Below, piece by piece: positions 1-46,023 of a DNA stretch of 64,000 nucleotides. This DNA is from Planctomycetota bacterium. GTDB taxonomy: Bacteria; Planctomycetota; GCA-002687715; DRQF01. Both the position numbers and the translations under genes were made by a program. The DNA is taken from NCBI GenBank assembly GCA_036479435.1, contig JAZGFI010000235.1, positions 1-64,000 of the forward strand, given 5' to 3'. The notes beneath the pieces are model-generated. The model was not told the origin of the DNA. It searched no databases and saw only the letters and a program-made list of their open reading frames with translations. The first letter of the stretch is position 1; each line of letters begins with the position of its first letter.

Positions 1-134
1 GTTCCAGCTGGTGGTCGACCTTGGCCGGATGGGATTGGGTACCCATAGGGTTTCGAACAAAGTTTCAGATCTGACTAAGTCATTTCGTACTCCTTGACTG
101 AGCTTTCCCAGCGCACTGACGCCGTATAGCAGGT

Positions 135-692: not shown

Positions 693-755
693 AGTGGAGG
701 CTCCTTGGCTGGGATAGATCGAGGCTTAGACGGCGCGCGCGTCGACGAGCTTTCA

Positions 756-2215: not shown

Positions 2216-2494
2216 GAACTCTCCCCAGCGAAATCCCGCTTTTTTACCGCCGCCGCGACTTCCCCGAAACCCTATCCCCAACGCGGCTTGGGGCCGATTC
2301 TCTGGCCTTGGGGTGGGCCCTACAATCCGGCCCCCCTATAGTACGATGCTCGCTCGCCTCGCTCAGCAATTCTTGGCGAAGGGCGCCCGGAGCCCCAGAA
2401 AGTAAGGAACTGGCCCCCGCGGGGCCAATCCCGGCCCATTCGCCAGATCCGGTGTGGGGTCCGCCACGATCCGGATGAGAAAAGGAGGAGCTGA

Positions 2495-3463: not shown

Positions 3464-4023
3464 ACTCGCCCTCGACTTCAAATTCGGGCTCATCAACAAG
3501 ACCCGTCAGCCCTAATAGACTCAAGGCCTTGCTACTCGATGTCGACGGGGTCCTCACCGACAACGGACTCTATATCGACGAGGAGGGGCGCACCTCAAAG
3601 CGTTTCGATGTGCGCGACGGCCAAGGCGTCGTCTTAGCCCAACGAGCCGGGCTACAGGTCGGATTGATAAGCGGCCACGATTCCAAAGCGGTACGCGAGC
3701 GCGCCCAAGGCCTCGGAATTTCGATTTGTTTCACTGGGGTCAAGGACAAGATCCCCGTCTATGAAAAAGTGCTGGAACAGCACGCTTGGTCCGATGATGA
3801 AATCGCCTACGTCGGTGATGACCTTATGGACCTTGGGATCTTGGGACGTTGCGGATTTGCGGCAACGGTTGCCGACGCTCATCCTCTCGTCCGCGAGATT
3901 GCCCACTTCACCACGAGGCGGCCGGGAGGTTTCGGCGCGGTACGCGAACTGATCGAGCACTTGCTCAAAGCGCGCGGGCAATGGACTCAGCTGACCAATA
4001 GTTATCGGGAACCGGGAGACTAA
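3460..4023 (+). CDS. kdsC: KDO-8-phosphate phosphatase (HAD family)
   Basis: DVDGVLTD, FDVRDG, YVGDDLMD, GGFGAVRE; ATGA overlap with kdsD. Confidence 0.92.
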   Translation: MNSPSTSNSGSSTRPVSPNRLKALLLDVDGVLTDNGLYIDEEGRTSKRFDVRDGQGVVLAQRAGLQVGLISGHDSKAVRERAQGLGISICFTGVKDKIPVYEKVLEQHAWSDDEIAYVGDDLMDLGILGRCGFAATVADAHPLVREIAHFTTRRPGGFGAVRELIEHLLKARGQWTQLTNSYREPGD

Positions 4024-4026
4024 GAC

Positions 4027-9275: not shown

Positions 9276-9279
9276 GGCC

Positions 9280-9696
9280 ATGAGCTTCGCAACCGTCATT
9301 TTTTTGGGATTCGGCCTCGGCACCATGGAGATGGTCGTCATTGGCATTGTGGGCCTGCTGATTTTCGGGCGGCGCCTACCGGAAGTCGGCCACTCGCTCG
9401 GCAAGACCTTTTTTGATCTTCGCCGCGGCATGAATGACATCAAACGAGAAATGGATGTTGCCGAACACCTAGCCGACGATGATGGCCACGACGACCATTA
9501 CCGGGACCACAACGACCACTACTCAGATCCCGGGCGGCGTGACGACGAAGAGATTGTGAAGGAAGCGCAGGCTTTTGGTGAGGGGGTTTCGGAGACTGGC
9601 GATAGCGCTGATTCCCATGAGGGGCCGATCGCGCGCGAAGAGACTCCGGCGAAACCGGACCGCCCCTCAAGCTCAAGTTCTGAATCCAAAGACTAG
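9280..9696 (+). CDS. tatA: Twin-arginine translocase TatA/TatE family subunit
   Basis: GTMEMVVIGIVGLLIFGRRLPEVGHSLGK (TM + FG hinge + amphipathic helix); acidic tail; ATG at 9280. Confidence 0.88.
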   Translation: MSFATVIFLGFGLGTMEMVVIGIVGLLIFGRRLPEVGHSLGKTFFDLRRGMNDIKREMDVAEHLADDDGHDDHYRDHNDHYSDPGRRDDEEIVKEAQAFGEGVSETGDSADSHEGPIAREETPAKPDRPSSSSSESKD

Positions 9697-11222
9697 ACCA
9701 CTTCTAGTTGAATGGCGCGGCATGCACTCGCGTTGCGCCCGCCCTCTTTGGCTTCGTAGAGCAAGGCGTCGGCGGACTTCAAAAGGTTGTGGGCGAGGCT
9801 TTCCTCGACGATGCCTGTGGCGCAGGCGCCGCCAATGCTGATCGTGACCGACAATTCTTTGCCGTCCATTTTCACTTTCGTCGCCTCAATCGTCCTGCGG
9901 ATGTTCTCCGCCAATTCCAGGAGTTCGTCCTCTTGGGTTTCCGGCACGATCACCACGAACTCTTCGCCACCGTAGCGCGCCGGGAAAAAACCCTCAGGGG
10001 TGACGTCCAAGAACACCTTGGCCACCGTCTTCAAAACTTCGTCGCCAACAACGTGACCATGGGTGTCGTTAAAGAGCTTGAACCTGTCCACATCCAACAA
10101 CAAAATTCCAAGCCAGCGCTCAGTCGAAGAATCCTTGACCTTTTGCACTTCAGCAGACAATTGTCGGTCAAAGAAGGCTCGGTTGTTCAGGCCCGTCATC
10201 TTGTCGGTGTTGGCCTCGTGCTCTAACTCCGCGTTGTCTTGTTCGAGTTGTTGATTGCGAGACTCTGAAGCTTGCAAGTCCGCGGCGGCGCCCAGACTAA
10301 TCTGCACCATTTGCATCCGGGCCTGGTCGACAATGGCAGCAAAGTTCGCCTGATTCTCCAAGCCGAGATCCAACAGTTCCGCGACTTCGTCGACAGAGGA
10401 CTGCATGCCCACCAAAAACTCCTGCAAGGTGCTCTCGTCGAGATCGAAGACGAACTCGAAAGTGTCCGAGAGGGTCTGCATTGCTGAACCCTTGTCATCA
10501 TCTAAGAGCACAGACTCCGCCAGGCTCGCCACGCGTACGATCATGGCGAGATTCATGGCTTCTTCAGAGGCGCCGTCCGGCATGGCCGTCGGGTCACTGA
10601 CATGGCGCACCACTACGGAGATGAGTTCCGGCAAACCCCATTTTTCAAGAAGACTCCCACTCACCTCGCAGTGGTCATAGCCCAAGTACTCTTGTTCAAG
10701 GGAAGCTGAAGGTAGTTGGTAGTCGGCGGCGGCGATAACCTCCTGGTAGGTGTCTTTGGCCACGATGAACAGGGCGAGTTGGCCCAGCCGCGACAAGAGG
10801 CCACACAGAAAGGCCTCCTCACCGTTTTTTTGTTTGAGCAGGGCGGCGAAGTTGCGGCCAGCAACCGCGCGAACTAGGCCGTGCTTCCAAAACAAGGGAA
10901 AGTCAAAACCTTCACCCTTGGACTGCTGAACGCTATTCACCAGGGAAAAGCTCAAGGCCATCAGCTTCACGGTCTTCAGCCCCAAGCGCATCATGGCTTG
11001 GTCCAAAGAAACCACGTCGGTCCCGCGCGCGAAAAGCGAGGAATTCGCGAGCTTCATGAGCTTCGCGGTAAGCGCGGGATCTTGCGAGACCACCATTGAC
11101 AGCTCATCCAAAGAAACGCCTTCGTCTCGGGTAAGACGAAGGATCTCGGTGGCCACCATAGGCGGTGTAGGCAAGTTGTCAGCGTTCACGATTTCGACAA
11201 GCGACGGAAGGGATGCGCTCAC
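9693..11222 (-). CDS. HDOD-GGDEF diguanylate cyclase
   Basis: HDOD (DPALTAKLMKLANS, KWGLP), coiled-coil linker, DKMTGLNNR, DVDRFKLFNDTHGH, RYGGEEF. Confidence 0.9.
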   Translation of the reverse strand: MSASLPSLVEIVNADNLPTPPMVATEILRLTRDEGVSLDELSMVVSQDPALTAKLMKLANSSLFARGTDVVSLDQAMMRLGLKTVKLMALSFSLVNSVQQSKGEGFDFPLFWKHGLVRAVAGRNFAALLKQKNGEEAFLCGLLSRLGQLALFIVAKDTYQEVIAAADYQLPSASLEQEYLGYDHCEVSGSLLEKWGLPELISVVVRHVSDPTAMPDGASEEAMNLAMIVRVASLAESVLLDDDKGSAMQTLSDTFEFVFDLDESTLQEFLVGMQSSVDEVAELLDLGLENQANFAAIVDQARMQMVQISLGAAADLQASESRNQQLEQDNAELEHEANTDKMTGLNNRAFFDRQLSAEVQKVKDSSTERWLGILLLDVDRFKLFNDTHGHVVGDEVLKTVAKVFLDVTPEGFFPARYGGEEFVVIVPETQEDELLELAENIRRTIEATKVKMDGKELSVTISIGGACATGIVEESLAHNLLKSADALLYEAKEGGRNASACRAIQLEVV

Positions 11223-11453
11223 GGTTTAGGTCCTCGACACGGCTTTGACTGCTGATGCGATGCTGGGTGAGAAGAATATCCAAGTGGAAATGATTCTCGT
11301 GCCAAGGGACTCATCGGCGCTCTGCGGGCAAAAGTTGACCTATTGCGTTGATACCCCGAGGTTTATCGAAAGTAGGTGTGGACGCGGCCAAGGTATGCCA
11401 AAAGGCCGCATTATTCCGCTTCTCTGTCTCAAATTGGGGCACTTGGGGGGCGA

Positions 11454-14214
<2,761 letters not shown>

Positions 14215-14218
<4 letters not shown>

Positions 14219-15327
14219 ACGTTTCTCATGGTGACGGGCATGACAACGTAAACGAGATCTTCTTCGCCAAGGATCTTGGCCGGCGTGTTGGGGCGCGACA
14301 GTCCGATTTCGACTTCGTCCGTGTCCATCACCTTGAGACCTTCGGTGAAAAAGTCGGGGTTGAAGGAAATTGAGAAGGGCTCCCCTTTGTGGTCGGGAGC
14401 ATCCAGCTCGATCTTGGCATCGCCGGCATCAAGCGCCTGCGCCGAAAGAGTGGCGCGGCCATCTTCGAGCGAAAACCTCACCGACCGAGTCTCCTGACTC
14501 GTGAGGAGGGCCGCTTGTCGAAACGCCGAAATGAGATCGTCGCGCCGGAACCGCACCGACATCGATGTCTCTTTGGGAATGACGCCGGTGTAATTCGGAA
14601 AACTCCCATCGACCAGGCGAGAAGAAATCTCCGCTCGCGTCGTCTTCACCATGATCTGACGTTCGTCGAGCGCGATGCGGACGGTTTCGTCGTCATCGGT
14701 CATGGCTTTCTCGAAAACTTGAAGAGCTCGCGCCGGGACGATGGGCCCCGCTGAGATGTTGTCGGAATTGTCGATGGCAACGACTTTGGTGGCCAGGCGC
14801 TTGCCGTCCGTGGCCACCATGCGGGCGGTGTCGCCCTCAATAATGAGCTTGGCTCCGTTGAAAGCGAAACGCGACTTTTCCTTGGCGACCGCGAACAGAG
14901 TCTTGCGTATCAGGAGCAACAATTTTTCGCGATCCAGTCCGAAGGCTTGGTCGCCATCAAACTCGGGCATTTCGGGAAACTCCTCGGGATTCTCCCCAAG
15001 AAGGTTGAAGGAACTGCGGCCGGACTTGATGCGAAGCTTGCCCGTTTCGTCGGTCTCAAATCCAACCTCTTCGGTGGACACCTCGCGCAGAATCGAAGCG
15101 ACTCGGGACGCCGGCACGACGACTTCGCCCAACTCCGCGCCCGCTTGCAGGGGCAGGTCAAAGCGAATGGTGATCTCAAGGTCACTGGACATCAGGCGAA
15201 CCCTCGCCGGGTCATCCACGAGGATATGGACACAACCCAGAATCGGCCGCATGGGGCGGCTCGAAATGATCGAGCCCACCAGCTGGAAAGCCTCAAGAAT
15301 GGCCTGACGTTGGACGCTGAATCTCAT
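14215..15327 (-). CDS. dnaN: DNA polymerase III beta clamp
   Basis: PIL..., SDLEI, EEFP, VATDGKRLA, LVDGSFPNY, FNPDF, YVVMPV; ATG 15327 with GAGG RBS; downstream of dnaA. Confidence 0.95.
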
Positions 15328-15583
15328 GGAACCGGCCTCTTCGTTCGCGGATTGGAGCTCGAGTTTCCCCAAGCGCGCTTTGAATCTCCATGATACGAAA
15401 GGAGGAGGTCTTTTTACAGTGAGGGGGCTTGTGGGGGGGTGGCCTGAAACCCTTACCAACAATGGACTTGTGCGCGCTTGGTCTAGACCCCTTCGAGCCT
15501 GGGGGCCAATGACTAAAGAACCCGCTTATGGGCCGCAGAATCCAAGTTATCAACCGGTTCTCACCAGCGCCTCGGATCTGCGA

Positions 15584-17053
15584 TCAGCTGGCGGTCAAGC
15601 CCCTCCTCAACTCGTCGACAATCAGAGCGAGATCGGGGTCTGTTTCGACTTTCTTTTGGATCTTGTCAATCGCATACAGCACGGTGGAGTGGTCACGGCC
15701 ACCAAAATAGCCCCCAATCTCAGATAGGGAGTGGTTGGTCAGTTTTCGAATCAGGTACATGCAAACCTGTCGAGGCAAGGTGATGGATTGCAGGCGTTTT
15801 TGAGATTGAAGCTCTGATAAGCGAACGCGGTAGTGGTCGGTGACCGCCTCAATCACTTGGTCGACGTTGACCCGACGCTTCCCAGATCCTAGGTCTCCCA
15901 GCGCCGTTTTGGCGTTGGCCATGTTGACTGGGCAGTCCATAAGCCTCGCGTAGCCCAGCAGTCGCGTCACCGCCCCCTCGATTTCTCGGATGCTCGTTCT
16001 CACCGTGCTGGCGAGGTACTCCATCACATCGTCCGGCACATCAACTCCGCTGTGCTGAGCCTTTTTGCGCACGATGGCCAACCTCGTCTCAAAGGTCGGG
16101 GGCTCGATTTCACAGACAAATCCCCAAGTAAAGCGCGAGACCAGGCGCTCTTCCAGGGTTGGAATCTCTTTTGGGGGACTGTCCGACGAGATGATGATCT
16201 GTTTTTGCTCGCTGTAGAGCGCGTTGAAGGTGTGGAAAAACTCTTCCTGGGTTTGGTCTTTGGCCGCCAGGAAGTGAATGTCGTCGACCAATAGAACGTC
16301 GACCTGCCGATAGTAGTCGCGGAACTCTGAAATGCAGTTCTTCTCAAGCGACGAAATGAAGTGGTTCACAAAGCGCTCACAGGGGATGTAGAGCATCTTG
16401 ATCCCGGGGCGCTGTTTAATCAGTTCGTGGCAAATCCCCTGCAATACGTGCGTTTTGCCGAGCCCCAACCCCCCGTGGATAAACAGAGGATTGTAGACGC
16501 GGCCCGCCTGCTGAACGACGGCGAGGCCCGCAGCTTGGGCGAGGCGGTTGCTGGGTCCTACGACAAAGTTGTCGAAGGTATAGGCGGGATTGAGTTTTAG
16601 CGACTCGATACGCGCAGTATCGAGTGCTGAGTTGGTGCGTGCGCCGTCGAGTGATGCCTTCGTCGTCGACTTGGGCGCCGGGTGTTGTTGGTGATGGGTT
16701 GAGGTTACGGCATCGATTTGGGGCAGTGGCCCCGAGTTGCCGGTGGCGGGAGCAAAATTTGCTGGGCCCCCTAGGCCGACAGCGGTGTTGGCCGCACCCT
16801 CGACCAGGCGAAACTCTAAAGGCGGACAGGCCTCTTTCATGACCTCGCTCGCCGCGCGTCGAATCGTCTCGCGGTAGGTGCGTTCGAGCCATTCGAGGTT
16901 AAAGGAGTTTGCAACCCCAATCACGATCGCCTTGTCGTCCACTTGGAGGCACTCGGTTCGCGAAAACCATGTTTCGAACTGGCCCTCGGAAAGGTCGCGG
17001 TTGACGACTTCCAACACCTTGAACCAGAATGTCTTTTGGTCGACGATGGCCAT
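15584..17053 (-). CDS. dnaA: Chromosomal replication initiator DnaA
   Basis: YTFDNFVVGPSN, YNPLFIHGGLGLGKTH, LLVDDIHF, QEEFFHTFN, RLVSRF, FGGRDHSTV. Confidence 0.97.
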   Translation of the reverse strand: MAIVDQKTFWFKVLEVVNRDLSEGQFETWFSRTECLQVDDKAIVIGVANSFNLEWLERTYRETIRRAASEVMKEACPPLEFRLVEGAANTAVGLGGPANFAPATGNSGPLPQIDAVTSTHHQQHPAPKSTTKASLDGARTNSALDTARIESLKLNPAYTFDNFVVGPSNRLAQAAGLAVVQQAGRVYNPLFIHGGLGLGKTHVLQGICHELIKQRPGIKMLYIPCERFVNHFISSLEKNCISEFRDYYRQVDVLLVDDIHFLAAKDQTQEEFFHTFNALYSEQKQIIISSDSPPKEIPTLEERLVSRFTWGFVCEIEPPTFETRLAIVRKKAQHSGVDVPDDVMEYLASTVRTSIREIEGAVTRLLGYARLMDCPVNMANAKTALGDLGSGKRRVNVDQVIEAVTDHYRVRLSELQSQKRLQSITLPRQVCMYLIRKLTNHSLSEIGGYFGGRDHSTVLYAIDKIQKKVETDPDLALIVDELRRGLTAS

Positions 17054-17381
17054 CTTTCTCAACCACTTTCATTGGGCGGACGCTGGCTGGAAACGAAGTG
17101 GTCGCATTCTTGTCTGCGAGTCTTCGCCTTTCGGCACGCGCCGTTTCAGGTCATGGATTTTTCGGTGCGGAGCGGGCGAAGTTTCGCGCGCTGTCCCCCC
17201 CGGTGACGAGGCGCGACTATAGGTCTAGATTCCGAAGGCGTCAATCGAATTTGAGCACACTTTCGCTGCAACTTTTTCGCCGACGACCGGCACCTTCCCA
17301 AAACGGAAGGGAGACCAAAGGTTGAGAACTTATCGTTGTTCTGTGGCTTTCTTTTTTTCGACCAATGTCTGGAGTTTGAGA

Positions 17382-18512
17382 CTAGTTTGCGATGTCGGCA
17401 AGGGCTTTGACGAAGGCCTCAACCTCGGTCTTGTTGTTGCCATGCCCGAGCGACACGCGCAGGGAAGCGTGGTTGTCTGCAAGTGAAAGGCCGATGGCGC
17501 GTAGGACGTGCGAGGCCTCCGCGGAGCCCGAAGAACAGGCGCTTCCTAAGCTCACGGCAAAGCCGGCCAGATCTAGTCGCATGAGTGCTGTTTCGCCATT
17601 GAGGCTCGGCACGCGTAGGCTCAGGCTTCCTGGCACTCTTGCCGCGTCCGCGCTGTTGAGCACCGCGTGTGAGATGCGGGTCGATAATTCTCGACGCAGA
17701 TGTTCATCGAGTTCCTTCAGGCTCGCCTGACGCGTCTTTTGTTCTTCGATAGCTAAACTAAGCGCTGCCGCCATGCCAACGGCTGACACGAGGTTCTCGG
17801 TGCCAGCGCGGCGCTCGCGCTCCTGTCCGCCACCGATAAGCTGGGCTTGAATTCGCTGTTCCGTACGAAGAAACAGGAGTCCAACTCCCATAGGACCGTT
17901 TGCTTTGTGGGCCGAGAAGCTGGCCGACGTCAGGCCTTCGCGCGCCAATGAGATGGGATGCTTGCCCAAGGCTTGGACGGCATCGCTGTGGAAGGGCACA
18001 CCAACTTGGAAACAACGTTCACAAAGTTGCGATACCGGTTGGATGGTGCCTAGCTCGTTATTAACCCACATCATCGTGAGCATTGCGCAGTCTTCGTCGA
18101 CGAGTTCGCAGGCTTTTTCAACATCGACAACCCCGCGACGGTCCACGGGAAGCCATTCGACCACAAACCCACTGGCCGCGAGGCTTTCGAGGGGGGCTAG
18201 AATCGATGGGTGTTCAATCGGGCTCGCCAAGATGCGGCGCCTCGACTTGGGCGCGGCGGCGGCGAGGCCGAACAGCGCCAGATTGTTGGCCTCGGTCGCA
18301 GACGCCGTGAAAACCAGCTCGCGGTCTTTGACGCCAAGCGCTAGCGCCGCCTCCGCTCGGGCATCCTCAAGAACCCTGCGGGCACGGCGTCCAAAGCTGT
18401 GAAGACTGCTGGGATTTCCCACCTCCAAGTCAAGGACAGCGTTCATCCGGCCGCGTACTCGCAAATCGAGGGGTGTGGTTGCGTTGTGGTCGAGATAGAT
18501 TCTCTTCACCAT
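17382..18512 (-). CDS. Cysteine desulfurase (IscS/NifS family)
   Basis: IYLDHNATTP, GNPSSLH, HSDAVQ, SAHK (PLP Lys), GGGQE..RAGTEN, GSACSSG (catalytic Cys). Confidence 0.92.
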   Translation of the reverse strand: MVKRIYLDHNATTPLDLRVRGRMNAVLDLEVGNPSSLHSFGRRARRVLEDARAEAALALGVKDRELVFTASATEANNLALFGLAAAAPKSRRRILASPIEHPSILAPLESLAASGFVVEWLPVDRRGVVDVEKACELVDEDCAMLTMMWVNNELGTIQPVSQLCERCFQVGVPFHSDAVQALGKHPISLAREGLTSASFSAHKANGPMGVGLLFLRTEQRIQAQLIGGGQERERRAGTENLVSAVGMAAALSLAIEEQKTRQASLKELDEHLRRELSTRISHAVLNSADAARVPGSLSLRVPSLNGETALMRLDLAGFAVSLGSACSSGSAEASHVLRAIGLSLADNHASLRVSLGHGNNKTEVEAFVKALADIAN

Positions 18513-18636
18513 CGACGGATTCCGTTCAAGTTGCTGACCTTCAAGATCCGAAAAAGAGAACAACCATCAAAAGGTTGCGTTGGCCTCGGTTTCGGTCCCA
18601 AGGCCGTCCACGCCGCCTTCAAGTAGAAGATCCTCT

Positions 18637-19296
18637 ATGAGCATCGTGAATACCCGCGAAAAATCGATTAACACCAAGGTCGTCTACTACGGAACGGGTT
18701 TGGGTGGGAAGACTACCAGTCTTCAGTACGTCCACTCCGTCCTTGACCCATCTGAGTCGATCAAGATGGTGTCACTTAAGACTGACGAAGAGCGAACCCT
18801 CTTCTTCGATTTCCTTCCGATCGATCTCGGCGAACTTGAGGGCTACACCGTCAAGATTCAGGGCTTCACAGTCCCCGGCCAGGTGAAATACAACCTAACC
18901 CGGAAGTACGTCTTGATGGGGGCCGACGGCGTTGTTTTTGTTGCTGACTCCGACCCTACACGCCTCGAAGAAAACATCCAAAGCATGGCGAACTTGCAGG
19001 AGAATCTCCGCGCAAACGGACTCGACCCTCAGACCATCCCCATTGCCATTCAGTTCAACAAGCGTGACCTTAAGACCACGACTTCCGTCGCAGATCTAAA
19101 GGAGGCGCTGTGCTTCCGCGAGATGCCCTGCTACGAGACCAGCGCGACCTTGGGGACGGGTGTTTTTGAGGCCTTTGTGGATGTCTCGGAGGCGGTGCTG
19201 CGGTGTACGGCAGAGCGTTACCAGCTCACCTGTCCGAACGGCGACATCGGTGACTTGGTTCGGAAGAACCTCGAGTCCTTCGCTAGCCCGTCCTAA
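18637..19296 (+). CDS. mglA: MglA-family small GTPase
   Basis: INTKVVYYGTGLGGKTT, ERTLFFDFLP, TVPGQV, GADGVVFVADS, NKRD. Confidence 0.85.
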   Translation: MSIVNTREKSINTKVVYYGTGLGGKTTSLQYVHSVLDPSESIKMVSLKTDEERTLFFDFLPIDLGELEGYTVKIQGFTVPGQVKYNLTRKYVLMGADGVVFVADSDPTRLEENIQSMANLQENLRANGLDPQTIPIAIQFNKRDLKTTTSVADLKEALCFREMPCYETSATLGTGVFEAFVDVSEAVLRCTAERYQLTCPNGDIGDLVRKNLESFASPS

Positions 19297-19337
19297 ATCC
19301 AGCTCCTCCTTCGTCGTGGTGGGGTGGCTTAGCTCGG

Positions 19338-20471
19338 CTAATTCCCCAAGACTTCGCGATAAAACTTCTCGTATCGCGGAACGATATCTTGCAGGGCGAA
19401 GTGTTCCTCCGCCCGACGTCGTGCGGCTTGTCCCATCACCTTCAAATGTTCTTTGTCTGCGGCCGCTTTCACCAAAATTGTGGTCAACGAGTCCAATTCG
19501 TCGGCTTCAAATAACCAACCCGTTTCGCCCTCGACCACGACTTCGGGCAAGCCCCCACCTCGGGCGCCGATAACGGGAACGCCGCATGCCATGGCCTCAA
19601 GGGCTGAGAGGCCGAACGACTCAAATCGCGAAGGCAGGACGAAGATGTCGGCACAGGGGATGATCGTCTCGACGGCATCTTGCGATCCCAAAAAGTGGAC
19701 GCGCTCTTGTACCCCTAATTCGGTGGCAAGCGCTTCCGCCGCCGCTCGGTCTGGCCCATCACCGACCATCAACAAACGCGCGGGGCGCTCTGCGGCCAAG
19801 GCTGCGAAAGCCTTCACCAGTAAAAAGACGCGTTTGACGGGTCGAAAGTTTGAAACGTGAATAAGGACCGTCTCGCCCGCCTGCCGCAGGGAGTCCGCTT
19901 CGGGACAGGACCGCATTTGGAAACGCTCAAGATCGATGAAGTTGGGAATGGTCTCAATGTGGCGTTCGATGTCGAAGATCCGGTGAGTTTCGGCCGTGAG
20001 GTATTTTGAAACTGCGGTGACGCCGTCTGCTTTCTCGATCGAAAATCTCGTGACGCGAGTATAGGAGGTGTCGTTGCCAACAATGGTGATGTCGGTTCCG
20101 TGAAGGGTGGCGATGATCTTGAGGTCATCGCGGTGGCTCATTTCCTTCGCGAGGTGAGCGCTCACGCTGTGGGGAATGGCGTAGTGGGCGTGGATCAGAT
20201 CAAGGTGGTGGTTCTCGGCGACTTCGGCCATCTTGGTGGCAAGGGCCAGCGCGTACGGCGGATACTTAAAGAGCGGGTAGTCGGGAACACTCACCTGGTG
20301 GTAAAAGACGTTTCCACGAAAGCCGCTGAGTCGCACCGGATACTCGTGTGCCAAGAAGTGGATTTCGTGGCCCTGGTCTGCCAACGCCAGCCCGATTTCG
20401 GTTGCGACGACACCACTGCCTCCAAAAGTTGGCCAGCACGCGATTCCAATTCGAAGGCTCGGCTTGCTCAT
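19338..20471 (-). CDS. bshA: N-acetyl-alpha-D-glucosaminyl L-malate synthase
   Basis: CWPTFGGSGVVATEIG, YPLFKYPPY, HAHYAIPH, TLHGTDIT.VG, HVSNFRPVKR, ESFGLSALEAM. Confidence 0.95.
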   Translation of the reverse strand: MSKPSLRIGIACWPTFGGSGVVATEIGLALADQGHEIHFLAHEYPVRLSGFRGNVFYHQVSVPDYPLFKYPPYALALATKMAEVAENHHLDLIHAHYAIPHSVSAHLAKEMSHRDDLKIIATLHGTDITIVGNDTSYTRVTRFSIEKADGVTAVSKYLTAETHRIFDIERHIETIPNFIDLERFQMRSCPEADSLRQAGETVLIHVSNFRPVKRVFLLVKAFAALAAERPARLLMVGDGPDRAAAEALATELGVQERVHFLGSQDAVETIIPCADIFVLPSRFESFGLSALEAMACGVPVIGARGGGLPEVVVEGETGWLFEADELDSLTTILVKAAADKEHLKVMGQAARRRAEEHFALQDIVPRYEKFYREVLGN

Positions 20472-38462: not shown

Positions 38463-38843
38463 GTGAAGAGTTTTTTGGAAAGCCGAGAGCTGATTCGCCG
38501 CTTGAAAGAAGGTTCCCCAATTGAGGTTGATGGCGAAGTCGTCAGACTTCCTCGCTTCTCAGAAATCCAGGAAGCACAGCCGGGGGATTTTGGTGCCAAG
38601 GGCAAACAGGATTTAATCGTCGCGAAAGCTCGCACTGCGACTTGGTGTGTGTGGCCACTTAACCGGCGCGCGAAGTTTCAAAAGAAAGACAGCGAGGGCT
38701 TCACCCTAATCTTGAAGGCACTCGAAGAGTCTATTCCTGACAAGCCGGTAGTGGGTTGGGTTTTGACGACGGGTCCGATTGACGACGCCGTCCGAGCCAA
38801 GATGAATGAGGACGGCCACCGCGTTAATCGCGTTCCGCTTTAG
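38463..38843 (+). CDS. Hypothetical protein
   Basis: 126-aa ORF with GGAG RBS and protein-like composition; stop abuts the convergent NAD kinase stop. Confidence 0.6.
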   Translation: MKSFLESRELIRRLKEGSPIEVDGEVVRLPRFSEIQEAQPGDFGAKGKQDLIVAKARTATWCVWPLNRRAKFQKKDSEGFTLILKALEESIPDKPVVGWVLTTGPIDDAVRAKMNEDGHRVNRVPL

Positions 38844-39578
38844 TCAGAATCGCCGGCGCGGTGCGTGCGAGTATCGGCATTGTCCGCAACGGAGACTGTC
38901 GATGCCGTAGACCACCGCGCTGCGCGTGGAACGCTGAATAACGAAGGCGTCACCGTTGCTGAGGTCGATGATTTCGGGGCTGTTGTCGGCGGTGAGTTGC
39001 GCCGGGCCCCGAACAATTTCTACCTGCACGACGTCATCGGGCTTCAGCACCAGGTGGTGTAGGAACTCGGTGCAGTTGTTGAAGGCGAGACCCATCCCGG
39101 TTCTGATGACGGTGTTGGTGATACTGCGGAAGTAGGCCGAGCTGCCGAAGGGCGTCGCGGCTACTAAGCCGTCGCCAATGGTCTCGTCGCTCACCATCTT
39201 ATTGTTCACTGCGACGCGAAAGCGAACCGAGCTCCGAACATCTGAGTTGCGAAGGATGATGTCGTTCATTCCACGTAGACGCTTGCCGTCGATGGTGGCG
39301 GTGATCTTCATCAATTCTGTTTTGGCCAGCTCCCCGCTCAAGAAGCGATCCAAGACGAGGGCGTCTTCATGCTCGGGGCATTTGGTGACCGCGCTCGCAT
39401 CGCGCATGCCGAGTTTGGGAACTTCCGGAAACTCTCGTTCGGCACCAATCAAAGTGCCGTCACCGCCGTAAGAAATAAGCAAGTCTGCGGCGTCGAAAGA
39501 ATCGGCGAGTTCGATTCCTCGGGCCTCCAGCAGAGGCTTCAGGATAGCGGCGTTCTTACCCACCAATCCGAATTTCAT
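38844..39578 (-). CDS. NAD(+) kinase family protein
   Basis: YGGDGTL, MND, GDGLVAATPFGSSAY. Confidence 0.85.
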   Translation of the reverse strand: MKFGLVGKNAAILKPLLEARGIELADSFDAADLLISYGGDGTLIGAEREFPEVPKLGMRDASAVTKCPEHEDALVLDRFLSGELAKTELMKITATIDGKRLRGMNDIILRNSDVRSSVRFRVAVNNKMVSDETIGDGLVAATPFGSSAYFRSITNTVIRTGMGLAFNNCTEFLHHLVLKPDDVVQVEIVRGPAQLTADNSPEIIDLSNGDAFVIQRSTRSAVVYGIDSLRCGQCRYSHAPRRRF

Positions 39579-39670
39579 CGCACACCCCCAATCCGAACGA
39601 CTTACCAGGGATCATTATCGGCCTCCACGCTTTGGGCGCAACCCGCCCCGCGACCTCCCGACGGTGAATT

Positions 39671-40798
39671 TCAGCGCAACTTGAGGGTGGCGAAACTTAG
39701 GACGCAACAAAGTAGCGAAACGATCCAAAAGCGCAGCACGACTTTTGTTTCCGCGAGGCCCTGGTGCTGGTAGCCGTGGTGGGCGGGAGCTCGAAAAAAA
39801 ATGCGCCGGCCAATCCAGCGGATGCCGACGTAGTCTTGGATCAACACCGAAAAAGCTTCGAAGACGAAAACCCCGCCCGCGATAAGGAAGAGGAGCTCCT
39901 GCTTCGACAAGATTGCCATCGCCCCCAAGCTACCTCCAAGCGCCATTGCACCGGTGTCGCCCATGAACATCTGAGCCGGATATCCATTGAACCACAAAAA
40001 GCCAAAACAGGACCCGACGACTGCCGAGGCGAAGATCGCAATCGCTTGCATGTCATGGGCCGGCATGTAGTCAAAAGCGAAGAACTTAGAGGTTTGGTTG
40101 TTCCACATCATGTACGCGACGACGCCAAAGACCGCAGCGGTGAGGGCTGTCGGTAAGACCGCCAGCCCGTCTAAGCCGTCGGCGAAATTGATCGCGTTGG
40201 TGATCGACACCAGGGCGACAACCACGAATGGCAAGTAGAAGTAGCCGAGGTCGATGGGCCCCAGAATCTCGGGTCTCGGAAAGGGGAAGTAGAGATTGGT
40301 GCGAATCTCCGCGGGGAAGGGCGAGGTGCCGTCAGACAAGATGATCGCGCCAAAGAAAAAGGCGAACAGGGCCTGGAGAAAAAACTTTAGATTACGAGAC
40401 ATCCCGGCGTCACTCGACCCACCCACAACTTTCATCATGTCGTCGACGCAACCAAGCGCTCCGTACCAAAGCACCGTTAAGACCAAGAGGTGTGCCACTC
40501 GGTTCTCAGCTTCGGAGAACAACAAGGTCGCCAAGATGATGCCACCCACGATCAGCAGGCCCCCCATCGTAGGCGTGCCACTTTTCGAGTGGTTGAAGTA
40601 CTCGCCGTAGTCGCGAACCCGATCGCGCATGCCGCGACGGTAGAGCCAGGCCGCTGTCCTGCGTCCAAGGAGAAGCACAAATCCAAACGCGACGATGAAA
40701 GCACCCACGCAACGGACCGAGGCGTACTGAAGAATGCGAAGCGGCGTTTCGCCCAGATTCAGCGGAGCGGACAACAAGTCATAGAGCCACGGCAACAT
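39671..40798 (-). CDS. mraY: Phospho-N-acetylmuramoyl-pentapeptide transferase
   Basis: KSGTPTMGG, VDD, NAINFADGLDGL, FLWFNGYPAQMFMGDTG, E.KVV.RFWI; 3 nt downstream of the murG-murJ fusion. Confidence 0.93.
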   Translation of the reverse strand: MLPWLYDLLSAPLNLGETPLRILQYASVRCVGAFIVAFGFVLLLGRRTAAWLYRRGMRDRVRDYGEYFNHSKSGTPTMGGLLIVGGIILATLLFSEAENRVAHLLVLTVLWYGALGCVDDMMKVVGGSSDAGMSRNLKFFLQALFAFFFGAIILSDGTSPFPAEIRTNLYFPFPRPEILGPIDLGYFYLPFVVVALVSITNAINFADGLDGLAVLPTALTAAVFGVVAYMMWNNQTSKFFAFDYMPAHDMQAIAIFASAVVGSCFGFLWFNGYPAQMFMGDTGAMALGGSLGAMAILSKQELLFLIAGGVFVFEAFSVLIQDYVGIRWIGRRIFFRAPAHHGYQHQGLAETKVVLRFWIVSLLCCVLSFATLKLR

Positions 40799-40801
40799 CG
40801 A

Positions 40802-43800
40802 TCAGCTCTCCTGAGGGGCCGGCCCGGTCGCCGCTAGAGGACCCGAATCTTCGGACCCTGCATCTTGCAGACCATTTCGGGCGGTGAAAATCGCCTCCTT
40901 GAGCGCGAAAGTCGGATTGAAAGAGTCGCAGGTAATCAAGACATCATCAAGTTTGGACAACAAGAGTTGCCAGTCCTCGACGACCCCACGTTTCCACAGC
41001 TCGTGGTAGACCTTGACGACCGCGCTACGCACCTGCCAATTGCGGTGATAGTGGAGCTTTTCGAGGTCCAACAGAATCGATTCGTCCAAAGCCGTGGCGC
41101 CGTAGGCCAACACCGCGGCGACGGCGACCTCAAAGTTGCGTTCGCGGACGCGAACGCGAAGGCGGGCGTTGGCGCGTTCGCGAGCCGGTGGGGTTAGCAC
41201 CGTGGCGTAGGTGCGTAGAGCATGAGCGGCCGTGCTTCGAACTTCGTAATAGGGATCGTCCAATGCCGTCAGGAGAGCGTCTTCAACGTCCGGGTCGATG
41301 GCCTCAAGTGTTCTCAGGGCAACGACCGCATTGCGACGCACAAAGCCGGGCTGTTCGAAGTCCGCGCCCCAAATACGCGGCCACAATGGTGCCGGGCGTC
41401 GGTTCTTGACGATGTCGCAGAGTTCGTAGCGCAAGGCCTGTATTTTCAACATGCCTGCGAGTTTCACACCGACATTGCGAACACGCCAATCGCTGTTGCC
41501 GAGGAAACTCTTGACTCGGCGAGTGAGGTTGGCGCCCTTCACGGCGGCGGGCCGGTGTAGGGCTACCGAGAGCAAGTGAAAGGGCTTAAGGCAGTAGACG
41601 TTAAGCGGCATGGAACGGGCAGGCGCTCCTCGCCGCTGCCGCGGCAAAAACCTGCTGACGCGCGCCAAGACTTCATCCACCTCGGGAGACTTGGCGACGA
41701 AGGCGACACCCAAAAAGACGAGGGCACCTAATCCCGCCGGAATGCTGAACACGACCAAGCGTGACAGAACGGTCGGCAGCAAGTCGAAATCCCGAGTGAC
41801 TTCATAGGTGAACCACGCCACCGGGGCGGCAGCTAGGGTTCCCAGCATCGTCGCTTGCAAGGAGGGCAAAAGGTCTTTGGCTTGAAAGCCTCCGCCGTCG
41901 CGAGTGAGATTGCGATTGAGATGCCAAATGCGGAACAGGCCGTTCGCCAAGAATGAAATCGAAGTTCCCAGCGCAACGCCAACGAAGGACAGGTTTAATC
42001 CGAACGCAAAGTAGAGTGACAACACGATGTTGAGGGCGACGGCGCCGAGGTTGATCAACATCGCTTGGCCGACCTCAAGCCTCGCGGCGTAGAAGCGACC
42101 GGTAAGGCCCTGCAAACCCCACCCGATCAAACCAATCGAGTAGGCGCAGAGAGCCGCCGCGACTTTCTGCGTGTCGGAGACATCAAAGTTGCCGTACTCC
42201 AACACCAACTCGACTGTGGGAACCGACAACACCACCATCAATGCCGAGATCGGAATCAGCAAGAACACGTTCCAGTTGATCCCGCTAGTGACCAGGCGGC
42301 GGCAGTAATCCAGATCACGCGCGGCCTGCGACTCAGAAAACTCTTTGAGGGCGACCGTATTGATCGACTGCGACACCAAAGCAAAGGGAAGTTGAAACAA
42401 GACCAAAGCGAAGAAGAGGGTCGAAGGGTCTCCGACGGCGAGCGTTGAGACGATCATGATGTCGACGACGGAGCCGACTTTCGAAATCGTGACGTCGCCA
42501 AGGATCTTCGGCGCCGCGCCGCGCACCTTTTTGGCGCCCGTCTCTCCCCATGCGAACAGAGGGCGGAAGTCGACCTTGAAGCCCCGTCGAAACTCTTTGC
42601 CCAAGATCACGGGCAAATGGAGGGCGGCTTGCCCCAAGCCCCCGAGCAACACCCCAACTCCCAATCCCATGATTCCCAGCCGGGGATAGAGAAGGATGCC
42701 GACGATGACGCCGATGCTGTACATCAGCGACGCGTAAGCGGGAAGGCCGAAGCGATTGTGAGCCCGGCAGACCGCACTGAAAATCGCCGCCACCGTAACC
42801 AGGACGAGGTAGGGCAACATGAGCCGAGTCAGGGTGATGGCGTCGCCAATCAAACCCTTGGCGACAAAGCCAGGCAAGACCCAAGGCAGCCACCAGTGTA
42901 CCGTCAGCATCGCCAGGGCCGCCACGACGGCAGAGGCGCCGACTACCGTGGTGAAGACGGTTCGCAGCAAGCGCTGTGCTTCTTCGGGACGGCCATTGCG
43001 CCGCAACATCATGAAGCTCGGCAAGAACGCGCTGTCGATGGCGTTCTCGGCGAAGATGCGTCGAAAGAGGTTCGAGATTGTCAGGCTGGCGGCAAAGATA
43101 TCCATGACGCCGGTGGTGGCGAAAGTGAGACCCAGCACCAGGGTTCGAACCAAGCCAAAACAACGCGAAAGAAGGGTCCCTAGCCCGGTTGCGATAACTC
43201 GCGAAAGAACGCTTCCGCGTTGATGGGGAATTTCGAGAGTTCGAATCTTGGCATCGAAAGTCAGCCGATTGGGACCAATGCTCAAGACTTGACCGGGCGA
43301 CAGTTTGGTTTTGCTCTCAACTTTGATGCCGTCTACCGAGATCTGTCCACGCCGCGGAATCAGAAGATACTCGGTGTTCTCGCGACCCACTCCGACGCGG
43401 CGAATCAAGGCACGTTCGCGCTGGCCGCGGTCCTTCAAGACGATGTCGGAGCCACTTCCGTGTCCGAGGGTGCTGACGTTGAAGAGCAACTCGGTTTCGA
43501 TCCCAGTCGCATCGCGAATCAAGCCCACTAACTGCTGCTGACTCTTGCTAGTGGGCGCGGGGGGAGGAGACGCCAAGGCGAGAACGGCATCGGTGTTGGC
43601 GGCTAGGGCATTGGGCACGACGAGTTCCCGAAGCGCTTCCGACATCGATTCTCGACGCGCCGAGTCTTCGAGAAGCTCGCGGACTCGGCGCGCTAGTTGA
43701 TCGCCGTGAACTCGCGTGATCGCTGCCCGCCCTTCGTCGTAGCTTTCTTCGAGCATGACGTCGGCGCGACCTTGGTCTTTCAGCGTGATGGCGTTTGCAA

Positions 43801-44734
43801 GCTGATGGGCATCGGCCCCATCGCTCTTGGGGATGAGAAGGATGGGCTTGCCTAGCGTCGCAAGCTCCATGATCGCTCCCGCACCGGCGCGCGTCACGAT
43901 GAGGTCACTCGCCCCGTAGGCGGCTTCGATCTCGTCAAAAAATCGTCTCGGAAGATAGCGTTCCCGGCGCTGCGGACTCAGCGAAGTTTTCTCAAGGCGA
44001 AGTCGGGTGTCGTTCCAGGCGTCATAGGCGCCGCGTTCGGCCAATCCCGTGCTGTGAATGACGGTGATGTTCTCGTCTTCGAGAAGTCGATTCAGGCCGT
44101 CGATCGTGGCCCGGTTGATCGATCGTGATCCCATCGATCCGCCAACAAAAAAAGCAACACGGTGGTGATTCGGAATCCCGAGTCGCTCGCGGTGCTCTTG
44201 GCGGCTAGCGTTGCCAAATCGAGCGCGAACGGGATAGCCAGCGTGGATCGCCTTGCTTTCGGGAAAAAAGTCGAGCGATTCCCGAAAAGAAACTCCGATC
44301 TTGGTCGCGAAACGCGACAGCAATAGGTTCGCTTTGCCGGGGTGGACGTTTTGTTCGTGCAAATAAATGGGTCGGCGGAGAATCGCCGCCGCCAACACCG
44401 TTGGCACGGACACATAGCCGCCGCTGGCGACGACAACGTCGGGACGAAATCGCCACAGCGTCACGAGCGCACGCAATACTCCTAAGCAAAGGGCGAGGCT
44501 AAAACGCGCAAAGGCGTAAAGACGGCGGGGCGAAACGAAGGGGTGCGCGGACAGGGATAGAAAGGGAATCTCGGCCTTGCCGACCATCTCGTGTTCGGCG
44601 CCACGCGCCGTGCCGAGATAGAGAATCTCTGCCTCCGGTTCACGTTGCCGTAATTCGCGAATGATCGCGAGATTGGGCGTGACGTGTCCTCCGGTCCCTC
44701 CGCCGGTAAAAACAAAACGCTGATTGCGACTCAA
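40802..44734 (-). CDS. Fusion protein: MurG glycosyltransferase + FHA-like domain + MurJ/MviN flippase + HEAT-like repeats
   Basis: MurG motifs GGGTGGH, GGYVS.P, HEQN, GGSMG, RAGA, HQ..NA; FHA-like segment ~43255-43530; MurJ motifs SRCFGLVR, NLFRRIFAE...SAFLP, QLP; HEAT-like DWRVR, DPYYEVR, NWQVR; one uninterrupted frame. Confidence 0.88.
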   Translation of the reverse strand: MSRNQRFVFTGGGTGGHVTPNLAIIRELRQREPEAEILYLGTARGAEHEMVGKAEIPFLSLSAHPFVSPRRLYAFARFSLALCLGVLRALVTLWRFRPDVVVASGGYVSVPTVLAAAILRRPIYLHEQNVHPGKANLLLSRFATKIGVSFRESLDFFPESKAIHAGYPVRARFGNASRQEHRERLGIPNHHRVAFFVGGSMGSRSINRATIDGLNRLLEDENITVIHSTGLAERGAYDAWNDTRLRLEKTSLSPQRRERYLPRRFFDEIEAAYGASDLIVTRAGAGAIMELATLGKPILLIPKSDGADAHQLANAITLKDQGRADVMLEESYDEGRAAITRVHGDQLARRVRELLEDSARRESMSEALRELVVPNALAANTDAVLALASPPPAPTSKSQQQLVGLIRDATGIETELLFNVSTLGHGSGSDIVLKDRGQRERALIRRVGVGRENTEYLLIPRRGQISVDGIKVESKTKLSPGQVLSIGPNRLTFDAKIRTLEIPHQRGSVLSRVIATGLGTLLSRCFGLVRTLVLGLTFATTGVMDIFAASLTISNLFRRIFAENAIDSAFLPSFMMLRRNGRPEEAQRLLRTVFTTVVGASAVVAALAMLTVHWWLPWVLPGFVAKGLIGDAITLTRLMLPYLVLVTVAAIFSAVCRAHNRFGLPAYASLMYSIGVIVGILLYPRLGIMGLGVGVLLGGLGQAALHLPVILGKEFRRGFKVDFRPLFAWGETGAKKVRGAAPKILGDVTISKVGSVVDIMIVSTLAVGDPSTLFFALVLFQLPFALVSQSINTVALKEFSESQAARDLDYCRRLVTSGINWNVFLLIPISALMVVLSVPTVELVLEYGNFDVSDTQKVAAALCAYSIGLIGWGLQGLTGRFYAARLEVGQAMLINLGAVALNIVLSLYFAFGLNLSFVGVALGTSISFLANGLFRIWHLNRNLTRDGGGFQAKDLLPSLQATMLGTLAAAPVAWFTYEVTRDFDLLPTVLSRLVVFSIPAGLGALVFLGVAFVAKSPEVDEVLARVSRFLPRQRRGAPARSMPLNVYCLKPFHLLSVALHRPAAVKGANLTRRVKSFLGNSDWRVRNVGVKLAGMLKIQALRYELCDIVKNRRPAPLWPRIWGADFEQPGFVRRNAVVALRTLEAIDPDVEDALLTALDDPYYEVRSTAAHALRTYATVLTPPARERANARLRVRVRERNFEVAVAAVLAYGATALDESILLDLEKLHYHRNWQVRSAVVKVYHELWKRGVVEDWQLLLSKLDDVLITCDSFNPTFALKEAIFTARNGLQDAGSEDSGPLAATGPAPQES

Positions 44735-45006
44735 TTTGGACTCCCCATCGCCCGGCGGAATCTCAGTACGGAGACTCCCTGGCTATGCCGACGCGCAGCC
44801 CCCAGCCTACTGGTCGCCGCCGACGGCTCTTGGGCCTGAAGTTCGCGGCATGAGCCCTCAGGAAATGTCATTCCCAGGGTTGGAGAGGTGTTTGTGTTTG
44901 TTTGGGTTCGCCCCGTTCCTGGTGGATGGCAGGGGGCGAAACTTCGCAACCACCGCCGAGGTCGCGAAGGGCCAGAATAGCCGGGCTGGCGCCGAAAGTG
45001 AAGTGG

Positions 45007-46023
45007 CTACTCCGTCACTTTCGGGATGACCCCATCTTGGGCATCGAGCTCGGCGTTTAAGCGCCTTCGCTTGGACCAACGCATGATGACCAAAAAGAAA
45101 GTGATCACCGCGATAAAGGCCCCGAATCCAAACTCCATGAGCTTGCCCGGCGGAAACCCGAACCAACTTCGCTGACCCTCTAGCCATTCGGCCTCTAGGC
45201 CCGCGCGATCGACCCCGATCACGGCTTTTAGCGAGAAGTCGAGATCGAAACCGCGACTGAGCAGCTTCAGTAGATCGGGGATGTTGCGTCTTTTGCTGCC
45301 ACGCTCTGCGATGAAACGGACGAGGGACAAGGACTGGACGTAGGCCAGCTGGCTAGCCCCCTCTTCGTCGGGAAAATCCCGTTCGAGTTCGTGAAGCGGA
45401 ATCAGGGAATTTGCGGCGCGGGCCCTTTCCAAGACTTCGTTGCTCCCCCAAAACACTTTTTCACTCGTCCATTGTGCGAGCCCTTCGTTGAGCCAAGTCG
45501 GAATAATGCAGCGCGGGCGGACCCTCATGAGGTGTCCCAAAAAACAGTGCACGAGCTCGTGTTGGAAGATGGTTTCGAGAGTCTCGCGGTGATTCGCGGT
45601 CCAGGCGCGGCTCTTAAGGATAATGAGGTCCTGGAATCCGAAGGCCACCGCCGCGATGTGGTCCGGCTTGGGCCGACCTCCTTCGGCGATGATGTTGGCG
45701 TTGAAGGCCTCGTGATCCCGAAAAAGCCGGACCCGAAGGCGTTGCGGGTAAGAAAACCCTAGTCGTTCCTGGGTTTCTCGCAAGATCCGGGGGTAAAACT
45801 CGCGAATGCGGCGGGCGGCACCCTCCAGGCCGTCCGCCGCCTGAATGTCGAGTGCTTGGGGGTCCGAGGGAGCTTGTTTGAGAAAGGAACCCCGCGCTTC
45901 GGCCCCTTTTTGGCCTGCAGCTGCGGCAACTGGCGGGCCTTGCGGCGGCACGCTCGCCGAAATCGGGGACGAAAGCGCCCACAGCATCGCTAAGACCGAG
46001 ACCGGGACGAAGACGAGTCCCAT
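45007..46023 (-). CDS. Peptidase MA-like (gluzincin) metallopeptidase with C-terminal TM
   Basis: HELVH...PTWLNEGLAQW, LAYVQS; signal peptide; start uncertain. Confidence 0.8.
   Translation of the reverse strand: MGLVFVPVSVLAMLWALSSPISASVPPQGPPVAAAAGQKGAEARGSFLKQAPSDPQALDIQAADGLEGAARRIREFYPRILRETQERLGFSYPQRLRVRLFRDHEAFNANIIAEGGRPKPDHIAAVAFGFQDLIILKSRAWTANHRETLETIFQHELVHCFLGHLMRVRPRCIIPTWLNEGLAQWTSEKVFWGSNEVLERARAANSLIPLHELERDFPDEEGASQLAYVQSLSLVRFIAERGSKRRNIPDLLKLLSRGFDLDFSLKAVIGVDRAGLEAEWLEGQRSWFGFPPGKLMEFGFGAFIAVITFFLVIMRWSKRRRLNAELDAQDGVIPKVTE

Follow-up and report, generated by a model that had tools for sequence, protein, structure and literature searches.

A natural MurG-MurJ fusion with FHA-fold and HEAT modules encoded next to mraY in an order of Planctomycetota

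Natural chimeras of the peptidoglycan precursor pathway have been surveyed, and the available part of that survey lists MurE-MurF, MurC-Ddl, MurC-MurB, MurG-MurC, MurD-FtsW and MraY-MurG, which are read as hints of complexes or of a fixed stoichiometry (PMC10214165). E. coli makes MraY, MurG and MurJ as individual proteins; mraY and murG belong to the division and cell wall (dcw) cluster and murJ lies elsewhere. In contrast, a stretch of 64,000 nt from a Planctomycetota bacterium (assembly GCA_036479435.1, contig JAZGFI010000235.1, positions 1 to 64,000; hereafter the window) encodes murG, an FHA-fold module, murJ and a HEAT-repeat domain in one open frame of 1310 aa (40802..44734, minus strand, stop codon included), followed by mraY. 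The fusion is a genuine, conserved and uninterrupted natural Mur chimera. Judging from the gene content of the genome, fusion and mraY together form the organism's main, and apparently its only, route for the membrane steps of peptidoglycan precursor synthesis. The features of the locus are as follows.

40802..44734, minus strand: fusion gene, 1310 aa (domain scores; full-length orthologs at 44-63% identity)
43565..44734, minus strand: MurG module, a glycosyltransferase of family 28 (GT28), residues 1-390 (PF03033 and PF04101)
43226..43549, minus strand: FHA-fold module, residues about 396-503 (AlphaFold2 model, Foldseek, profile against the PDB)
41648..43210, minus strand: MurJ module, a 14-helix flippase of the multidrug/oligosaccharidyl-lipid/polysaccharide (MOP) type, residues about 509-1029 (TIGR01695; model against 7waw)
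40847..41596, minus strand: HEAT-repeat domain, residues about 1047-1296 (profile against the PDB; all-helical model)
39671..40798, minus strand: mraY (375 aa), phospho-MurNAc-pentapeptide transferase of the HEAT-linked subfamily (TIGR00445; alignment with 4j72)
44741..44746, minus strand: GGGGAG, predicted Shine-Dalgarno-like sequence, read from the sequence 6 nt before the TTG start

The four-module fusion and its relatives

The frame is found in relatives of the window's organism. Across 22 other genomes of the order, the fusion is full length in 16, cut by a contig end in four and without a match in two. Eleven aligned orthologs (44-63% identity, all four modules) show the same uninterrupted frame without gaps at the module junctions. 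Contigs from four public sequencing runs extend over 39671-44734 without a break (0 differences, 0 gaps), so that both domain junctions are spanned unchanged, with neither a stop nor a frameshift. The four runs represent at most three samples and three studies; two of them are possibly the source of this DNA, and two belong to a study without a mark as possible source. One of the 16 full-length orthologs (G011:C161:3838-7707) carries a single in-frame TGA, for which a sequencing error, a pseudogene or recoding is possible. The two genomes without a fusion match (G014 and G015; 2.4 and 2.6 Mb, 86% and 90% complete) also gave no separate MurG or MurJ part and no MraY match in genome searches; the locus may be unassembled or the pathway lost in these lineages.

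Relatives among the genome contigs were found with a multi-sequence alignment as query, while a single-protein query gave none. Of 300 sampled genomes of the phylum, 15 belong to the order; strong matches (E ≤ 1e-90) were obtained in 13 of these and in 0 of the remaining 285. Within Planctomycetota, the fusion is restricted in this sample to the order of the window. The murG and murJ matches are separate in the 18 genomes of other orders that were examined.

In a large protein collection, 120 proteins with E ≤ 1e-10 were listed among 7,997 scored candidates. About 93 clusters (P0003-P0092, P0094, P0095 and P0099; 1191-1349 aa) align over 89% or more of the query and contain both GT28 and MurJ domains, and the architecture is therefore not unique to this genome. 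They fall into a first set that is 37-63% identical to the protein of the window, with named records labeled Planctomycetota, and a second set (about 1257 aa) with 27-35% identity, whose few named records are Aminicenantes or Acidobacteriota. One protein of the second set aligns from end to end, FHA-like and HEAT parts included, at 31% identity. The source names of the four-module proteins are purely automatic ('MurJ' or 'MurJ/MurG'). Another 17 clusters (P0100-P0116, 720-766 aa) combine MurG with the same HEAT domain and have neither the FHA-like module nor MurJ. The weaker matches include chimeras of MurG-MurC (831 aa) and MurG-MurC-MurB (1179 aa), P0120 and P0121, as well as a MurJ protein with PF19516 (P0122; 1241 aa). 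For residue conservation, an alignment of 91 rows (A4) was used, from which P0003, identical to the protein of the window, and the shorter or partial P0039, P0043, P0093 and P0096-P0098 were omitted.

The first-pass annotation, made from the letters of this DNA, had described a single 1310-aa frame with intact MurG motifs, a Pro-rich linker, an FHA-like module, a full MurJ domain and about 250 aa of HEAT-like repeats. Pfam and NCBIfam searches bear out the single frame and its modules. PF03033 (Glyco_transf_28) matches residues 7-147 (110.8 bits, E = 7.4e-32) and PF04101 (Glyco_tran_28_C) residues 194-367 (78.7 bits, E = 6.9e-22), both above the cut-off. The module aligns with the structures 3s2u and 1f0k at E of about 1e-29, with short insertions relative to both. 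The motifs GGTGGH, HEQN, GGSxG, RxGAxxxxE and HQxxNA are taken here to be the G-loop and donor-site motifs of MurG. Their counterparts GGGTGGH (11-17), HEQN (126-129), GGSxG (198-202) and RAGAG (282-286), together with E290, H310-Q311 and N314, are either invariant across the 91 sequences or conserved to at least 90%. The MurG module thus looks intact, as annotated, and is predicted to turn lipid I into lipid II.

For MurJ, the Pfam model PF03023 matches residues 538-980 (E = 5.6e-79), and the NCBIfam model TIGR01695 scores 275.7 bits (cut-off 235.55) over positions 2-505 of 506. The fold was predicted for residues 392-1310 (919 aa, FHA-MurJ-HEAT); P0094, a natural member of 1191 aa, was rejected as a substitute for full-length modeling because of deletions in its FHA region. 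The model reaches a predicted local distance difference test score (pLDDT) of 92.8 and a predicted template modeling score (pTM) of 0.77. It contains 14 long helices, counted by DSSP since Kyte-Doolittle hydropathy was too crude. The closest structure is MurJ 7waw (TMt 0.91, rmsd 2.5 Å), with WzxE and MATE structures ranking lower. The near-complete model span and the 14-helix fold agree with a full MurJ domain. In E. coli MurJ, the residues R18, R24, R52 and R270 line the cavity and are essential. With the E. coli numbering checked on 7waw, the equivalents of R18, R24, D39, R52 and E57 (R524, R530, D545, R558 and E563) are conserved; R524, R530 and R558 are each present in 41/41 sequences of the first group and in 48, 50 and 48 of the 50 of the second. 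Apart from V778 at the position of R270, the MurJ module looks intact as well from its sequence and predicted fold.

The mraY product scores 270.6 bits against TIGR00445 (cut-off 192.05), and its alignment with MraY of Aquifex (4j72) reaches E = 2.1e-67. It retains the motifs DD, GDxG and APxHH; D119-D120 and H340 are invariant, and D281 and H341 are at least 90% conserved.

Genomic context and the HEAT-mraY pair

The genome of the organism comprises 5.47 Mb in 299 contigs and is 92% complete. Domain and family searches gave no further credible murG, murJ or mraY in it. A second match of the MurJ family is a Polysacc_synt (Wzx-type) protein beside a GT2 gene and was rejected as murJ; a second match to the C-terminal GT28 domain resembles monogalactosyldiacylglycerol (MGDG) synthase and was rejected as murG. 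A protein of at least 694 aa (L004, G000:C193:4610-6894; frame listed at 1041 aa) has a GT28-type C-terminal half of the MGDG-synthase-like kind and no Pfam match in its N-terminal 400 residues. The other genes of the pathway are found elsewhere in the genome, namely murA, murB, murC, murD, murE, murF, ftsW with ftsI, a rodA-pbp2 pair and a ddl-like gene (237 bits, cut-off 245.65).

The dcw cluster is located on a different contig from the fusion (C18, about 3762-15902 of 1-20000) in the order mraZ-rsmH-ftsI-murE-murF-ftsW-LysM protein-small open reading frame-murC-murB. It lacks exactly mraY, murD and murG. The stop codon of murF overlaps the start of ftsW, and the slots of these genes are therefore empty. 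A LysM protein stands where murG usually sits. The first-pass annotation had left open a main or a second route; with sole copies of murG, murJ and mraY, a dcw cluster without mraY and murG and the rest of the pathway present, the unit is the main one.

A gap of 3 nt separates the stop of the fusion from the start of mraY (...AGC TGA tcg ATG), which agrees with the annotated junction. Among the 19 other genomes of the order with an mraY match, 17 likewise carry mraY directly downstream of the fusion. The exceptions belong to one genus of the window's family (L107, G001:C6; L108, G005:C212), in which mraY lies away from the fusion. Beyond the order, a MurG-HEAT gene without MurJ precedes mraY in 3/3 loci (L032-L034, from a metagenome-assembled genome of KSB1 and two unclassified ones), and its HEAT domain is homologous to that of the fusion (33% identity, E = 4e-34). 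A stand-alone HEAT open reading frame (298 and 227 aa, respectively) stands directly upstream of mraY in two Planctomycetota of other orders (L118, G034:C157; L119, G027:C74). In canonical dcw clusters of other phyla, mraY is located about 2.8 kb upstream of murG. Apart from G001 and G005, the constant feature of the family is a HEAT domain followed by mraY. This arrangement, seen in three architectures and several phyla, points to a specific partnership with MraY.

For the HEAT repeats, a single-sequence Pfam search places HEAT_2 at 1132-1176 (E = 8e-6, 26.5 bits) just under the cut-off of 27.7, and a profile of the region from 11 sequences matches alphaRep (2.5e-14) and PP2A-A (7e-9) in the PDB. 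In the model, the region is all-helical with a pLDDT mostly above 90. The profile matches and the helical model confirm the annotated repeats of about 250 aa. Docking of the HEAT domain with MraY gave an ipSAE of 0.35 (runs 0.41, 0.35 and 0.31), and the best of three controls gave 0.00, which amounts to weak support for the contact. The runs agree in at least 88% of contacts, with a partner pLDDT of at least 81. In the calibration, the docking mark was reached by 116/157 solved complexes and 2/215 mismatched pairs; a passing score of ≤0.60 was seen in only 18 of the 157 solved complexes and in both of the mismatches that passed. Together with the synteny, the score is a modest point in favor of a HEAT-MraY contact. 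The HEAT domain would most likely dock MraY.

Quick IQ-TREE phylogenies support a common lineage of these genes. The MraY tree (50 sequences) places 27 HEAT-linked rows in one clade with a support of 99 in the Shimodaira-Hasegawa-like approximate likelihood ratio test (SH-aLRT), apart from nine MraY of other Planctomycetota and from dcw-type MraY. The clade consists of 15 rows of the window's order, eight closest relatives, two behind MurG-HEAT and two behind a stand-alone HEAT open reading frame. The eight closest relatives are named Latescibacteria, KSB1, Delongbacteria, Calditrichaeota, Aminicenantes or Acidobacteriota. The MraY of L118 and L119 fall inside the HEAT-linked clade on long branches. 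Analogously, the tree of 59 MurG sequences unites the 28 HEAT-associated ones in a single clade (SH-aLRT 99), and a branch with a support of 98 separates them from 14 stand-alone MurG of other Planctomycetota. MraY and MurG thus belong to a HEAT-linked lineage that crosses phyla and is separate from that of other Planctomycetota. The trees are compatible either with a module that spread horizontally or with an old paralogous lineage, followed by loss of the dcw copies. The HEAT-linked lineage probably replaced the copies of the dcw cluster.

The flanking genes of the unit are housekeeping genes, encoding an AIR-synthase-like protein, a pyridoxal phosphate enzyme of the Cys/Met type, an NAD-kinase-like protein, a peptidase MA, RNase HII, an M48 peptidase and gyrA. 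No mur or fts gene adjoins the fusion-mraY pair in the window, in agreement with the annotated absence of murC/D/E/F, ftsW and ftsI. The TTG start is the first start codon available in the open frame of the fusion. A sigma-70 promoter scan of 38700-45200 gave 0 sites. In the same range, eight terminator-like sites were found and 8.1 are expected, so that these are uninformative.

Proposed assembly and alternative explanations

The two-gene unit is probably the main lipid II machinery of the organism, in which MraY, then the fused MurG and then MurJ would act within one assembly, with MraY docked by the HEAT domain and with a lineage that replaced the dcw copies. MraY would make lipid I, the MurG module would convert it to lipid II, and the MurJ module of the same polypeptide would flip the product. 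Both termini of E. coli MurJ are cytoplasmic, and the MurG, FHA-fold and HEAT parts should therefore lie on the cytoplasmic face. The tether between MurG and the FHA-fold module comprises about 8-10 residues. The annotated Pro-rich linker is present here (ASPPPAPTS, residues 388-396) but is not conserved among orthologs. In the model, about five residues connect the last long FHA strand with MurJ helix 1. Since these tethers are short, MurG would be held near the cytoplasmic mouth of the flippase and lipid II would be released next to it, with the FHA-fold module as a putative rigid spacer or docking piece. A linker of about 17 residues, flexible and of low confidence in the model, connects the last MurJ helices with the HEAT domain and would leave the latter free to reach a partner. 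By docking MraY, the HEAT domain would complete a single MraY-MurG-MurJ assembly, and lipid II would be produced next to its exporter. Physical channeling of the three steps is plausible on the indirect evidence of the conserved fusion and gene order, the very short tethers and the weak docking.

A more far-reaching version is possible but tentative. The HEAT domain would be a dedicated MraY-docking adaptor of a hard-wired metabolon without release of intermediates. The module would have a single origin, would have spread between phyla (Planctomycetota, Acidobacteriota/Aminicenantes, KSB1 and others) and, in the order of the window, would have displaced mraY and murG of the dcw cluster.

Several observations weigh against the proposed assembly. 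The MurG module reaches 221 bits (224.9 in six-frame translation) against the NCBIfam model TIGR01133 and stays below the cut-off of 250.25. The third His of the HHH motif of MraY is a Gly. In MurJ, E. coli R270 aligns with V778 (L777, V778, Q781), and only part of the family has a basic residue at the neighboring position or a helical turn away: K or R at 777 in 8/41 sequences of the first group and 32/50 of the second, R at 781 in 4/41 and 41/50. The pTM of 0.77 may be carried mostly by the MurJ core. No HEAT match is found within about 1.5 kb of mraY in G001 and G005, in which mraY is located elsewhere, and adjacency is thus not obligatory. According to the calibration, a 'weak' docking verdict is wrong more often than it is right when the guess was not already likely. 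Both trees are quick, unrooted searches with SH-aLRT support only and with long branches. Finally, the fusion alone is no proof of channeling, because chimeras of non-consecutive enzymes such as MurG-MurC are among those surveyed (PMC10214165, available part). As an observation on the alignment, window positions 42400-42414 correspond to residues 774-778, with E. coli D269-R270 aligned to L777-V778.

A serious, though rather unlikely, alternative is that the fusion serves dosage or stability only. The union of MurG with MurJ and a translational coupling of mraY would then set stoichiometry and co-localization without direct hand-off, and the HEAT and FHA modules would bind partners other than MraY or MurG, such as scaffolds of the divisome or elongasome. 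The non-consecutive chimeras MurG-MurC, MurC-Ddl as well as MurD-FtsW are indeed discussed as aids to stoichiometry or stability in the survey, as far as available (PMC10214165), and native mass spectrometry of the E. coli proteins, in the accessible portion of the report, explains the passage of lipids by affinity gradients and not by a fixed complex (PMC9046198). The weak HEAT-MraY docking score fits this explanation, too. On the other hand, the HEAT domain stands directly before mraY in three architectures and several phyla, and the tethers keep MurG at the flippase mouth regardless of what selected for the fusion.

The FHA fold would also allow for a phosphothreonine switch, by which a Ser/Thr kinase controls lipid II flipping as FhaA does with mycobacterial MviN. 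The module was predicted with a pLDDT of 93.9 and a pTM of 0.85. In a Foldseek search, its top matches are all FHA domains (probability 1.00, TMq 0.60-0.68), with 62 matches at E ≤ 1e-3. They include CEP170, EmbR, GarA, OdhI, KIF1A, YscD (4a0e, 4d9v) and M. tuberculosis FhaA (Rv0020c, 2lc1), and a profile of the module matches the FHA domain of EmbR in the PDB at 4.4e-4. The residues that bind phosphothreonine are presumably the Arg of GR, the Ser and His of SxxH and the Asn of NG. When the EmbR alignment is used to locate these positions, each of the four proves substituted or variable across the 91 sequences. The Arg of GR is replaced by H, N or T and the Asn of NG by R or K; the Ser of SxxH varies, and in place of the His the planctomycete group has an Arg and the other group L, I or V. 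No PF00498 match was found in the fusion protein by the Pfam scan. The best Pfam match, at residues 410-494, is the FHA-clan family Yop-YscD_cpl (E = 0.012, 16.3 bits, cut-off 33.2), the structural FHA-like domain of the type III secretion system (T3SS). The annotated FHA-like module therefore has the fold, but it is unlikely to act as a phospho-dependent interaction module, since the phosphopeptide-binding residues are not kept. FhaA binds the phosphorylated pseudokinase domain of MviN, according to the part of the report available (bioRxiv 10.1101/2024.08.13.607006). With the binding positions not conserved and the best match a structural domain below the cut-off, such a switch is very improbable here.

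A second route for a different lipid-linked glycan is extremely unlikely. It would account for the score of MurG below the equivalog cut-off and for the divergent lineage of MraY and MurG with altered motifs (HHG for HHH, no R270 equivalent). However, searches of the 92%-complete genome gave no other murG, murJ or mraY, and murA-F, the ddl-like gene, ftsW/ftsI and rodA/pbp2 would otherwise be kept without a lipid-linked partner; moreover, exactly mraY and murG are missing from the dcw cluster. An assembly or frameshift artefact that joined separate genes can safely be set aside, as the contigs of four runs are identical over the stretch and the same frame recurs in 16 other genomes of the order and about 93 protein clusters.

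Comparison with known systems

The passage of lipid II from MurG to the flippase, and the question of a MraY-MurG-MurJ complex, have so far been argued from separate proteins. The conserved fusion, with MurG within about 15 residues of MurJ helix 1, is probably a stable object of study that could be used for cryo-electron microscopy, cross-linking and coupled synthesis-flipping assays. If the metabolon is true, it would serve as a natural 'Rosetta stone' for the way in which MurJ obtains its substrate. The order-wide emptying of the mraY and murG slots of the dcw cluster bears on the evolution of cell-wall gene order and complexes. MraY, MurG and MurJ are all antibiotic targets, and knowledge of their contacts is generally useful.

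A literature search found no published description of a MurG-MurJ fusion or of a HEAT domain with MurG, MurJ or MraY. The earlier remark that no characterized protein has this architecture stands, with database names being automatic only. The fusion is apparently an undescribed variant of the known class of Mur chimeras.

The FHA-like domain of YscD/EscD lacks the canonical phosphothreonine residues and serves as a structural module. As in these T3SS proteins (Yop-YscD_cpl; 4a0e, 4d9v), an FHA fold is joined directly to a membrane segment in the fusion; YscD and EscD belong to a secretion system and have no sequence relationship to the module beyond the fold. The nearest functional parallel for an FHA fold at a flippase appears to be mycobacterial FhaA-MviN, in which it is likewise found on the cytoplasmic side of the lipid II flippase (bioRxiv 10.1101/2024.08.13.607006, available part). 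There, the FHA domain belongs to a protein of its own, FhaA, which binds a phosphothreonine on MviN, a MurJ with a pseudokinase domain; the module of the window, in contrast, is fused in cis and lacks the binding residues.

MraY, MurG and MurJ of the window belong to the same families as those of E. coli (8g01, 1f0k, 6cc4), with the same reaction order and largely the same motifs. Unlike in E. coli, where mraY precedes murG in the dcw cluster, the unit reads murG-(FHA)-murJ-HEAT and then mraY, and the equivalents of MurJ R270 and of the third MraY His are not kept. Compared with the chimeras in the available part of the survey (PMC10214165), from which unidentified species were excluded and which has no MurG-MurJ among those listed, the fusion differs in joining a cytoplasmic-face enzyme to a flippase, in its two additional non-enzymatic modules and in its location outside the dcw cluster. 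It resembles them in that two proteins of the pathway are united in one polypeptide and that the arrangement is restricted to certain lineages.

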